A stretch of 64,000 nucleotides of DNA from Amoebidium appalachense. Lineage: Eukaryota; Protista; Ichthyosporea. Positions 7,001-10,000 of this stretch are shown piece after piece (positions within the stretch are counted from its first letter, which is position 1; each line of letters opens with the position of its first letter). The notes beneath the pieces were generated by a model, which ran no database searches, was not told where the DNA came from, and was given only the letters and a program-made list of their open reading frames with translations. A program made the translations under genes and the position numbers. The DNA is taken from positions 4,368,722-4,432,721 of the forward strand of contig CAVNZM010000013.1 of NCBI GenBank assembly GCA_963693365.1, given 5' to 3'.

Positions 7001-10000
7001 TCTCTTCCCTCCCCACCCTCCCTCTCTGACTCCCTTCTCTTTCTTGTACCTTCTCCCCTCCCCCCCCTCCCCCCCCCCCCCCCACCTAACCCCACCTCCT
7101 CCTCCCACAACCACCACGAATTGCTACGTTGTATTTCCATGTTCTCTTCGTTGCTTGCATATGCCTTCACACCCTTTCCGTTTTGCCTATTTGCCCCTTT
7201 ATGTTTTATTCTCTCTCTCTCGCCGCCCTCCCCCCCCCCCCCCCCCCCTCCCCTCCCCTGCCCCAGCCCTTCCCCCGTCCCCCCCCCCCTCCCCTCCCCC
7301 CCCCCCCCCCCCCCCCCCACACACACACACACATACACACCCACCCACCCACCCCCTTCAACCCCTCCCCCCTCCACTCCCTACTCCCCCCTCACGCCTT
7401 TCCTTCTTCCCCCTCTTCCCATATCTCTGGCCTCTCAATACGTTTTGCTTTCATACCATCTCCCCGTCCGTCCACTGCATTATACTGAATTAGCACATAC
7501 TAATATACCTTATTATCCTGTTTTCTTACTACTATACAATTAATTTTTCATATTAATTAGCAGTGCTATGTATTTTTTATCAGTAAGCGCCATAAATACT
7601 ACATGGTATTAACTTAGTATCATTACGCTATAAATCCTGTTTTATAATGACTGAGCTAGCGAGCTTAAGTACAGTCCATACGTCTCTCCTGGTTTTCGTA
7701 ATTGGTAATACAAGTGTAAAATTGCTTAAGTGTTGATATTTGGAACGATAACCCCCCTTCCTCACATGTATGCTTCTACAAATTTGCACCCATCTACAAA
7801 CACACACGCACACATGCGCAAACACCTGCCCACGAGCGCGCACACACAAACACAAGCACACGTGCGCGCACGCACACGCACACGCACACGCACACACACA
7901 CACACATATGCACACCCACACCCACACCCACACCCACCCACCCACCCACCCACCCACACACACATTCAGCTATGGTGTTTCTGAGGATATGTGGAAGAAT
8001 ATCGAACTTCCCATCCCAGGCAAGGGAACCAATCCGGTATATACCCCCCCCCCCCCCCCCCCCACCCCACCCCCACCCCACCCCATCCTCTGCGTGGGTG
8101 TGTGCGTCCGTTCGTGTGTGTGTGTGCGTCCGTTTGTGTGTGCGTATGTGCGTGCGTGTGTGTGTGCGTGCGTGCGTGTGCGCGTGCGTGCGTGCGTGTG
8201 TGTGTGGGGAGGGGGGGGGGGGGGGGGGAGGGGGGGGAGGGGGGGGGGGGGGGGGCAAAGAACAAAAGGAGGATTCTGCCACGGCACGGCTGAGATTGTA
8301 AATCTGCTATCTCCCAATACCTGACCTCTATTGCTAGACTTTCCCACAAAACCACGTTCATTACTATCGAAATTCATGTCATCCAGATATCATTGCAGCT
8401 GTACCACCCAATATTGACACTATATGGCCCGATTACCACTCGATTACTGTTTAATCTTTACATCGCTCGATTATTGTGGAATTTCACATCACGCTTACTT
8501 TTTTGTCACCCGAACACTGTTGAAATGGAAGACACATTACCACATTACCTAATCGCGATTAGAAATATACAGCTCGATGCGCCCCCCACCCCATACCCCC
8601 CCCCTCCCCCCCCCCCCTCCCCCCCGAACTTCTGCTGATGTTTATACCACCCAATTATCACCCGAATAGTGCTGGAATTTCGCTGACACGGTGATTTATG
8701 TAGACGGCCGCCGTCGGAGATGCCAATACAGGCAGCACCAAGCCGACCAGGGTTATTTTTAGTGACATCGACACAGACTCGGAGGCGCCATGCACCTCGG
8801 ATTCAGATACGGAACCCGGTAGGTGTCCATCCAATATCCCGTGTTTTTGCATTTTCCCGGTTTAAATGTTTTTTCGGATTCCGATAGGTTGGGTGTCCCA
8901 ACGATATTCCAGTCTTTTTGCATATTCCGGAATTTTGTTTTGGGGTGTCTCTTCTGGACTGAATTTTCTTACTTCCCCCCCTGTTTTTAGACCAAAGTTG
9001 ATTCACTGGCAATATGGTACCCACATAGTAACGGTAGAGTTATAAACAGAAACCATTATACAAAGAGCATATGGTTTTGCTTGTGTGAGTACGCACTTTA
9101 GCGCACATGAGCATGGGCTTGCATATGCGTGTTTGTTTGTGTGCGCGCGCACGTGTGTGTGTGTATCAAGGAAGGGGGGGGGGGAGGGGCCGGGGAGAGA
9201 GAGAGAGAGGGGGTGCCTCTTCTTACCATAAGGTGATGTGGGGCCTGCAGAAACAGAAGAGAAGAAACTTCCAGAGGTCACAGCCACCGGTGGGTCACTT
9301 GAATCCACCAACCTCCGCCCCCCCCCCCCCCCCCCCCCCCCCCCCCTCCCCCCTCCCTCCACCCCCTCCCCCCCCCTCCCCCCCCCCCCCCCCCCCCCCG
9401 CGCATCCTCCCACCCCGCTTGTCCCAACTAAGTAACCCTACTTGTCTTGGATTAAGACGGATGACCCTCCCATGCTCAAGTGAAACAATATCTGAGTTGG
9501 GTTTTCTATGTGAGGTGAATGGGTCGAAACTCGGGTGCTATTGATGACTTTGCCCCCCCCCCCCCCCCCCTCTCCGGAGACATCTTTACTTCCATGCAAC
9601 CGGGCATGGTTGCTCTGTGTCGTGCATCTGTAAGCACATACGCGTTTGTCGCTGCACTGCATTAGTTTGCACACACATCTTCACCGTTTTGCTCACCTTG
9701 ATTGCATAAGCAACCCTGCTCGTCTTTGATCAAGACGGGTTGACCCGCCCAAGTTCAGTTGATGCTGCTGTCTGAGTTGGAGCGTCGTATATACGCGGGC
9801 TAAGGGGTCGAAACTCAAACGCAATTGATGACTTGGGCCCTCCCTGAGGATGGGCTCTGCTTATGACGCATACTGTGCGCATGGCTGATGCTGCATATTT
9901 GAATGTTTGCCTTTGCATGTGTCCTGCACCATGCTTCTCATCGTCTATGCGTACTTCGTACTGTGTTCCGCATTCAAACCCCCCCCCCCCACCCCCGAGC

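Follow-up and report, generated by a model that had tools for sequence, protein, structure and literature searches.

A putative split-core hammerhead with S-G-C strand order in likely Penelope-like retroelements of Amoebidium appalachense

Hammerheads with a non-circular order of their core segments have been described as type SGC. In the available portions of Eckert 2023 (PMC10085705), this type comprises 583 predicted sequences, five of which cleaved at the expected site, is known from metatranscriptomes only and cleaves at rates of 0.007-0.19 per min. Two type-CSG sequences, both metagenomic, also cleave; by the same portions, neither SGC nor CSG was found in the genomes of known organisms, and CUGAnGA was assumed to be joined to its stems with at most 1-2 nt inserted at A9/G10.1. 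For Penelope hammerheads, precursor RNA cleavage and possibly circularisation were proposed in the relevant passages of Cervera and de la Pena (PMC4209133). The Poseidon hammerhead, in the parts of PMC11167929 that treat it, cuts only with protein and is not needed for insertion in vitro, the uncut RNA being the main substrate. Naiad and Chlamys elements were reported to be without canonical hammerheads in the available portions of Craig 2021 (PMC8557442), which list cases labelled 'HHR_core' and eight labelled 'HHR_half_core', the two halves of the latter lying on either side at a distance of 35-50 nt, and propose no fold for the half cores. They also name (C)n and (CA)n as the targets of Chlamys and report families that are non-autonomous.

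The DNA analysed here (the window) is a stretch of 64,000 nucleotides of contig CAVNZM010000013.1 from Amoebidium appalachense, in which an earlier note had identified hammerhead core segments in a non-cyclic 3-2-1 order within a repeat. This order is real but not new as such, being that of published type SGC. As in type SGC (HRIMA-1 and variants), at the detail given in the portions cited, the order runs cleavage site, GAAA, CUGAnGA with two core pseudoknots, stem I is covalently linked to stem II, and a helix, here the arm, joins their other sides. Block C is uninterrupted in type SGC, with CUGAnGA joined to the stem II strand, whereas in the best model here it is split, the stem II strand lying upstream and a closing helix P0 and hairpin Pa standing at A9/G10.1. 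The linker between stems I and II is typically 3 nt in type SGC versus 18-22 nt here (22 nt at 9783-9804), and type SGC is metatranscriptomic and shown to cleave, whereas the present form is a predicted ribozyme of a genomic retroelement. Type CSG, as far as the same source describes it, has the identical circular connectivity of strands, but its core block is contiguous and its chain is opened between stem III and the arm, not inside the core as here.

A core within a Penelope-like terminal repeat is shared with the minimal type I hammerheads of Penelope and Poseidon, as presented in parts of PMC4209133, bioRxiv 10.64898/2026.07.22.740005 and PMC11167929. According to these parts, type I hammerheads of Penelope/Poseidon pLTRs and non-LTR retrozymes often carry a nucleotide inserted between 9 and 10.1 and conserve G10.1-C11.1, as here; the Penelope/Poseidon type I form has a circular order and a tiny stem III that needs dimers, whereas stem III here has 7-12 bp and the order is non-circular.

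The reading favoured here, with moderate confidence, is a self-cleaving S-G-C hammerhead whose core is opened between A9 and G10.1; in likely Naiad/Chlamys-type Penelope-like elements it precedes the fixed 3' end by about 200 nt. The 11 core nucleotides, their order, complementary strands with covariation, poly(C)-flanked 3' ends and one copy continuous with a fragment of a reverse transcriptase (RT) are seen directly in the DNA, and from these we infer the fold.

Repeat copies and their link to a Penelope-type reverse transcriptase

The window contains 17 repeat copies; two are diverged and stand apart, and the others belong to subfamilies A, B and C. The copies and RT segments referred to below are as follows.

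9574..9978, plus strand: subfamily A copy of about 405 bp with a fixed 3' end followed by poly(C)
437..836, minus strand: A copy with intact stem III and the scaffold as its minimum-energy fold
49679..49851, plus strand: A copy with a compensatory A-U to G-C change in stem III, in which stem I has lost its first pair and 10 nt are duplicated
58267..58429, plus strand: A copy with a partly broken arm
34518..34676, plus strand: complete ribozyme-like domain of subfamily B (B34)
59584..59733, plus strand: subfamily C domain (C59), truncated on its 5' side at stem II and with poly(C) lying within an arm strand
26667..27897, plus strand: decayed Penelope-type RT fragment and 3' UTR, reaching a C-family 3' end with no poly(C) break
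31447..32709, plus strand: Naiad/Chlamys-type RT frame, 5'-truncated, with YIDD and GIPMG motifs, stopping at the thumb

Sixteen fixed 3' ends were listed, each with poly(C) within a few bases. The 5' ends vary and copies often stand head to tail, with neighbours of different subfamilies and poly(C) between them; thus the A copy at 58267-58429 is followed head to tail by a B copy (58572-58740, starting at the predicted cut) and a C copy (to 58946). Four A copies share an identical 5' start, as expected of a short non-autonomous element, and the subfamily A repeat is likely a non-autonomous Penelope-like element. Microsatellite insertion, 5' truncation and tandem copies are all present, as in Naiad and Chlamys. 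The likeness to these N-terminal-endonuclease elements, as set out in the available portions of Craig 2021, extends to RT motifs, (C)n insertion, the absence of a C-terminal endonuclease, head-to-tail copies and short non-autonomous families such as MRC1. Tandem identical units each bearing a type I hammerhead, as in non-LTR retrozymes, are not what the window holds, no type I hammerhead having been found in six regions within 160 nt on either strand. No tRNA genes occur in the window and no tRNA-derived SINE head was seen; the covariance model missed a candidate fourth relative at 37560-37700.

The tie to Penelope-like elements drawn in the earlier note was borne out, with a C-family 3' end running unbroken from a decayed RT fragment. 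The RT piece itself occupies 26667-27145 (E 4.3e-10 and 6.3e-13), and a decayed C-family domain lies at 27615-27773 in the 3' UTR; the continuity of 26667-27897 ties one subfamily, C, directly to an RT. The RT frame at 31447-32709 is separated from B34 by simple repeats, and its open reading frame stops at 32709 with no C-terminal GIY-YIG endonuclease. The search with this frame returned 1865 relatives among 3709 candidates, with a fern protein first (E 5.7e-73) and a Mesostigma protein among them (2.5e-66), whose C-terminus matches by eye the frame end of Chlamys-1_meVir as far as the source gives it. Both window RTs are 5'-truncated, short of the N-terminal GIY-YIG and CxC motifs; CxC is visible in the longer relatives P0003, P0008, P0032, P0046 and P0059, and the 10 relatives scanned gave no GIY-YIG Pfam match. 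The quick tree, built on 55 of 121 rows, placed the window RT outside a clade (100) of 19 rows of DKR[DE]DF type, labelled Naiad-like by eye from passages of the Craig 2021 supplement, and basal on the side holding Chlamys-1_meVir, on a long branch and in no starred set. The host elements are likely Naiad/Chlamys-type Penelope-like retroelements. The RT scan of viral contigs returned none.

Core segments, strand order and the predicted cut

The core of copy 9574-9978, read by coordinate, agrees with the earlier note's segment positions: GUU at 9776-9778, GGAG at 9779-9782, GAAA at 9810-9813, CUCC at 9840-9843 and CUGAGGA at 9844-9850. The segments are arranged as follows.

9770..9782, plus strand: block S, with the stem III 5' strand (9770-9776), U16.1 and H17 of the GUU triplet (9777-9778), the predicted cut 3' of 9778, and the stem I 3' strand
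9783..9804, plus strand: linker of 22 nt from stem I to stem II, containing a self-complementary 10-mer
9805..9820, plus strand: block G, with the stem II 3' strand GGGUC (9805-9809), G12-A15.1 as GAAA (9810-9813) and the stem III 3' strand (9814-9820)
9840..9850, plus strand: stem I 5' strand and the C3-A9 core CUGAGGA

The same core recurs in the other subfamilies, as had been claimed, with CUGAGGA at 34653 and a GGG/CCC stem I in B34 and CUGAUGA at 59710 in C59. The copy near 27751 (C27) does hold a C-family domain, but it is decayed, with triplet GUG and broken stems. Hammerhead positions C3 U4 G5 A6 N7 G8 A9, G12 A13 A14 and the A15.1-U16.1 pair are all found, and N7 is indeed the free position, being G, U or A across subfamilies while the other 11 are constant; identity across A, B and C is 11 of 11 there and 43 of 100 in the other columns of the alignment (Fisher p 2e-4, post hoc). 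The NUH triplet between stems III and I is GUU in seven of the eight copies covering the site, the exception being the GUG of C27. Stems I, II and III show covariation and G10.1-C11.1 is present, with stem I measuring just 3-4 bp. A9 joined to G10.1 directly or through 1-2 nt occurs only in a weaker rival fold; in the best-supported fold the stem II strand lies about 100 nt upstream, not beside A9.

A descriptor specifying S-G-C order with at least 3 bp in stem I, 4 bp in stem II and 4 bp in stem III matched the window five times, with G12 at 9810, 34619, 58374, 59673 and, on the minus strand, 605; three of these sites are subfamily A, so they amount to about three independent cases. In 100 locally dinucleotide-shuffled windows it found 0 sites, whichever stem II partner was used. 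Six regions were checked for every one of the six block orders, requiring a contiguous core and 3 bp or more per stem; SGC alone fitted, in five of them, while no order fitted the A49550 region, and none fitted antisense in any of the six. Circular orders CGS, GSC and SCG (types I, II and III) were absent from the six regions within 160 nt on both strands, as was a canonical type II arrangement with the triplet between GAAA and CUGAGGA. At the gathering cutoff Rfam gave 0 matches for the window; a search of 9400-10000 at E<=5 also gave 0, and over 33850-34800 there were only two sub-threshold, chance-level matches. The UGAUGA/CUGA words could also suggest a kink-turn or a C/D box, a reading dropped by eye because no tandem G-A geometry fitted.

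Conservation of this kind could also reflect a hammerhead-derived fold that is not, or no longer, catalytic and at which the element's RT binds or starts. This is unlikely, though several observations point towards it: eight of the 17 copies span the predicted cut site uncut, the nested ensemble gives U17 a probability of 0.62-0.78 of pairing with A14 in three of four copies, stem I is short, and mutants of the Poseidon hammerhead had no effect on insertion in vitro, by the account in PMC11167929. Against it, all 11 core positions are kept while N7 varies, and a G at H17 is absent both from intact copies and from the 16 Naiad examples identified by eye in the parts of the supplement described below; GUU-type sites also occur in canonical Hydra/Penelope hammerheads in the available part of Craig 2021 File S2. 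Moreover, the predicted cut coincides with the start of two truncated copies among 11, at offsets 0 and -1 (p 0.014-0.03, post hoc), with seven starting further 3'. These starts and the eight uncut copies, together with the U17-A14 pairing, the short stem I and the behaviour of Poseidon, would fit slow or regulated cutting by the predicted hammerhead favoured here.

The stem II partner and the scaffold helices

The pseudoknotted, non-circularly permuted fold of the earlier note, with an inner hairpin bridging stems I and II, gains support from the present analysis. It lacked four elements predicted here, namely the upstream stem II strand, the long arm, hairpin Pa and closing helix P0, which lie as follows.

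9705..9716, plus strand: 5' strands of P0, 8 bp distal (9705-9712) and 3 bp proximal (9714-9716), pair probability 0.98
9718..9740, plus strand: hairpin Pa of 9 bp between P0 and stem II, probability 0.99
9742..9746, plus strand: stem II 5' strand, upstream partner of 9805-9809, with G10.1 at 9742
9747..9761, plus strand: arm 5' strands, 8 bp and 7 bp, continuing stem III
9822..9838, plus strand: arm 3' strands, pairing with 9747-9761
9852..9865, plus strand: P0 3' strands

The earlier note had formed stem II from the strand 3' of A9 with a 2-nt insertion. Under this reading the fold would be an ordinary type SGC and the upstream helix an off-state, which we consider quite unlikely. Such a stem II is possible with 4-6 bp in A, B and C, pairs in 86.5% of 52 cells, uses a strand (9853-9857) that is invariant in the three subfamilies and would match the validated type SGC as presented in the portions of PMC10085705. 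However, its five pairs show 0 double-sided changes and 500 of 500 shuffles score as high, it contains a C-A mismatch in B34, and its strand lies within the P0 3' strands, so that it competes with P0 (probability 0.76-0.99) and consumes G's that P0 requires. It is also impossible in eight of the ten split-layout Naiad records, as read by eye in the available supplement, since these have no G within 2 nt after A9 and leave the upstream stem II as the sole option.

The upstream helix (9742-9746 with GGGUC) comprises five Watson-Crick pairs, of which G-C, A-U and C-G are kept in all complete copies, while U-A replaces C-G once in each of the other two subfamilies, at pair 5 in B34 and pair 4 in C59, where the strand was assigned by hand with a poly(C) run directly 3' of it. 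Stacking energies are -11.2 kcal/mol for the upstream helix versus -7.6 for the alternative in A, and -10.8 versus -5.6 in B34. GGGUC thus pairs better with the covarying upstream strand, so A9 and G10.1 would not be adjacent, and the partner chosen in the earlier note, 3' of A9, is probably not the right one. What makes this family particularly informative is that a single molecule carries both candidate strands for stem II.

In the predicted fold, closing helix P0 comes into the core at the A9/G10.1 junction and the arm caps stems I and II. Five of 11 arm pairs change on both sides, and the segment 9747-9754/9831-9838 adjoins stems I and II. In a 12-row alignment, the complete 45-pair structure was paired in 87.4% of 334 cells, with 13 pairs changed on both sides, at least two of which are discounted (C59, a misaligned row, and decayed C27 supply one each), and covariation was seen in stems I, II and III, the arm and P0. 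Shuffled controls gave 6.1 +/- 1.8 double-sided pairs, with 0 of 500 as high, and slid registers gave 33-49% paired cells and 2-5 double-sided pairs; these controls flatter the structure, because it was hand-fitted to copy A and the rows are related.

Folding of individual copies was uneven. P0, Pa, the arm and stem III form the minimum-energy fold of copy 437-836 (z -2.39, 4 of 200 shuffles), whereas B34 folds no better than shuffles (z -0.53). In copy 9574-9978 a G-to-A change at 9818 weakens stem III and another nested fold is preferred; the stem III probability in the nested ensemble is 0.0 there versus 0.99-1.0 in three other copies. The folding program scores nested pairs, and stems I and II cross the scaffold, so they lie outside its scores.

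Assembly across two molecules or tandem copies, with the apical loop of one (blocks S and G) joining the basal strands of the other, is very unlikely. The linker between stems I and II is self-complementary over 10-14 nt in three of six copies and over 4-6 nt in the other three, the arm would need to turn back on itself in a monomer, copies stand head to tail, and Penelope hammerheads are described as dimers in the relevant part of PMC4209133. Yet the linker also folds as a simple hairpin, it measures just 0-10 nt in the Naiad examples read by eye from the supplement, and type-SGC monomers cleave with a comparable return path according to the portions of PMC10085705. Dimer assembly is not needed for the fold. 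A chance match of short motifs within a decaying repeat, for which the relatedness of the window copies and the occurrence of the bare motif pair by chance at 50 metagenome and 4 viral loci might speak, is barely credible and is largely refuted by the shuffled windows, by covariation in stems I, II, III, arm and P0, and by a matching layout in unrelated Naiad ends, to the extent that the supplement displays them. Those 54 GAAA-to-CUGAnGA loci lie in coding or unrelated DNA and appear to be chance matches, 0 of 54 matching the covariance model.

Naiad consensus ends, proposed working and meaning

The Craig 2021 supplement, in the parts available, was searched for four CUGAnGA words, and 30 of 37, 21 of 21, 31 of 39 and 22 of 22 places were read by eye; the statements on Naiad and Chlamys records that follow are limited to these places. 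At least ten Naiad consensus records (about seven unrelated, three being near-identical and two close relatives) display the layout found here, with a hairpin directly before the upstream stem II strand, followed by the arm and stem III. Their triplets are GUA, AUA, AUC and UUC, and their sequences are unrelated. Stem I has 4-6 bp (2 bp in one record, mismatches in another), and the closing helix starts 0-1 nt after A9, being weak in two records and out of view in one. At least six further records, beside nematode headers, show a contiguous type-CSG form with GUC and an arm helix, so that 16 or more families are involved out of about 50, the Naiad table running to at least 54 rows. No record of the Chlamys section carries the motif among the matches listed, and the Chlamys-1_meVir 3' UTR (about 600 nt) contains no CUGAnGA in the text provided.

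The inferred chain would run P0, Pa, stem II, arm, stem III, GUU, stem I and linker hairpin, then stem II, GAAA, stem III, arm, stem I, CUGAnGA and P0. The nested scaffold of P0, Pa, arm and stem III would form first, and stems I and II would close afterwards as two pseudoknots. The arm may fold back along stems III and II and secure stems I and II at their far ends, as helix 'I' does in type SGC, while P0 would keep A9 beside G10.1 in place of a covalent link. Joining A9 to G10.1 would give the strand circle of types SGC and CSG, which here would be opened in the core and reclosed by P0 and Pa. A slow or protein-assisted cut 3' of 9778 in read-through or tandem transcripts may yield unit-length RNA, and uncut RNA would remain the template for target-primed reverse transcription at (C)n, as in Poseidon.

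The strand order is already known; the split core and the placement of non-circular hammerheads in chromosomal retroelements appear to be the new elements. No active hammerhead with a break at A9/G10.1 was found in the literature examined, and no report of a split-core hammerhead in the literature searched, with subscription journals largely outside its coverage. The lineage described here would be distinguished by poly(C) targeting, a position outside the Naiad-like RT clade, three covarying subfamilies and a GUU site. A broader proposal is tentative and falls a little short of probable: that a hammerhead can cleave with its core backbone broken and P0 and Pa in place of the A9-G10.1 link, that the N-terminal-endonuclease Penelope clade carries it as its standard terminal ribozyme, from animal Naiads out to this poly(C)-targeting lineage, and that the families described here, the only ones also able to form a contiguous stem II, can switch between the split and the ordinary SGC core.

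If the split-core hammerhead is real, it would be a seventh wiring beside the six permutations considered possible for hammerheads, and a core tolerating a backbone break at A9/G10.1 would provide a new place for aptamer insertion or chain opening. Non-circular hammerheads would move from orphan metatranscriptome contigs into chromosomal retroelements. A split, non-circular fold would likewise explain the reported absence of hammerheads in Naiad/Chlamys elements, answering why these seemed to be without the ribozyme carried by other Penelope-like elements.

Elsewhere in the window, the open reading frame at 19246-19971 had no homologues among 368 candidates. The window also holds microsatellites and BTB/POZ and VLRF1 reading frames, a content suggestive of eukaryotic DNA.

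Internal poly(C) runs and a subfamily A inverted pair

Poly(C) runs at 59600-59617 and 60960-60975 are internal to element copies and occupy positions at which the consensus itself carries a short C run, which suggests that C runs belonging to the element have been expanded, or targeted by insertion. Repeat subfamily A, likely active recently, includes copies at 421-860 and 9555-9994 that form an inverted pair of 440 nt, 98% complementary and 8.7 kb apart.

Type CSG in published Naiad ends

In parts 13-16 of the PMC8557442 supplement, six consensus ends of Naiad, a Penelope-like element clade, read by eye as complete hammerheads of the non-circular strand order type CSG, with GUC, and adjoin nematode headers there. 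Type CSG is in print from two metagenomic sequences only (PMC10085705).

Sequence near the subfamily B domain

Upstream of the subfamily B ribozyme-like domain lies a unique 650-nt stretch (33860-34510, + strand), probably a further part of the B element's 3' UTR; one portion is G+C-richer and appears structured, and an Rfam search across the stretch returned no match above chance. Separately, 37560-37700 (+ strand) resembles a decayed fourth relative, possessing the triplet and GAAA core blocks and a complementary stem and lacking CUGAnGA; the covariance model did not pick it up.

Other features

A word-based homologue search with the VLRF1-domain frame listed below found none among 368 candidates.

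Reading frames and repeats in the window
17419-17889, +, BTB/POZ reading frame (PF02214, E 6.5e-15)
19048-19974, +, uninterrupted reading frame matching Pfam PF18826 (VLRF1 release-factor domain) at E 1.8e-18
30501-30758, imperfect inverted repeat
Two-copy repeats (four, unrelated):
29065-29210 and 29253-29397
37951-38142 and 39580-39777
40260-40715 and 41480-41918
41939-42160 and 42477-42706
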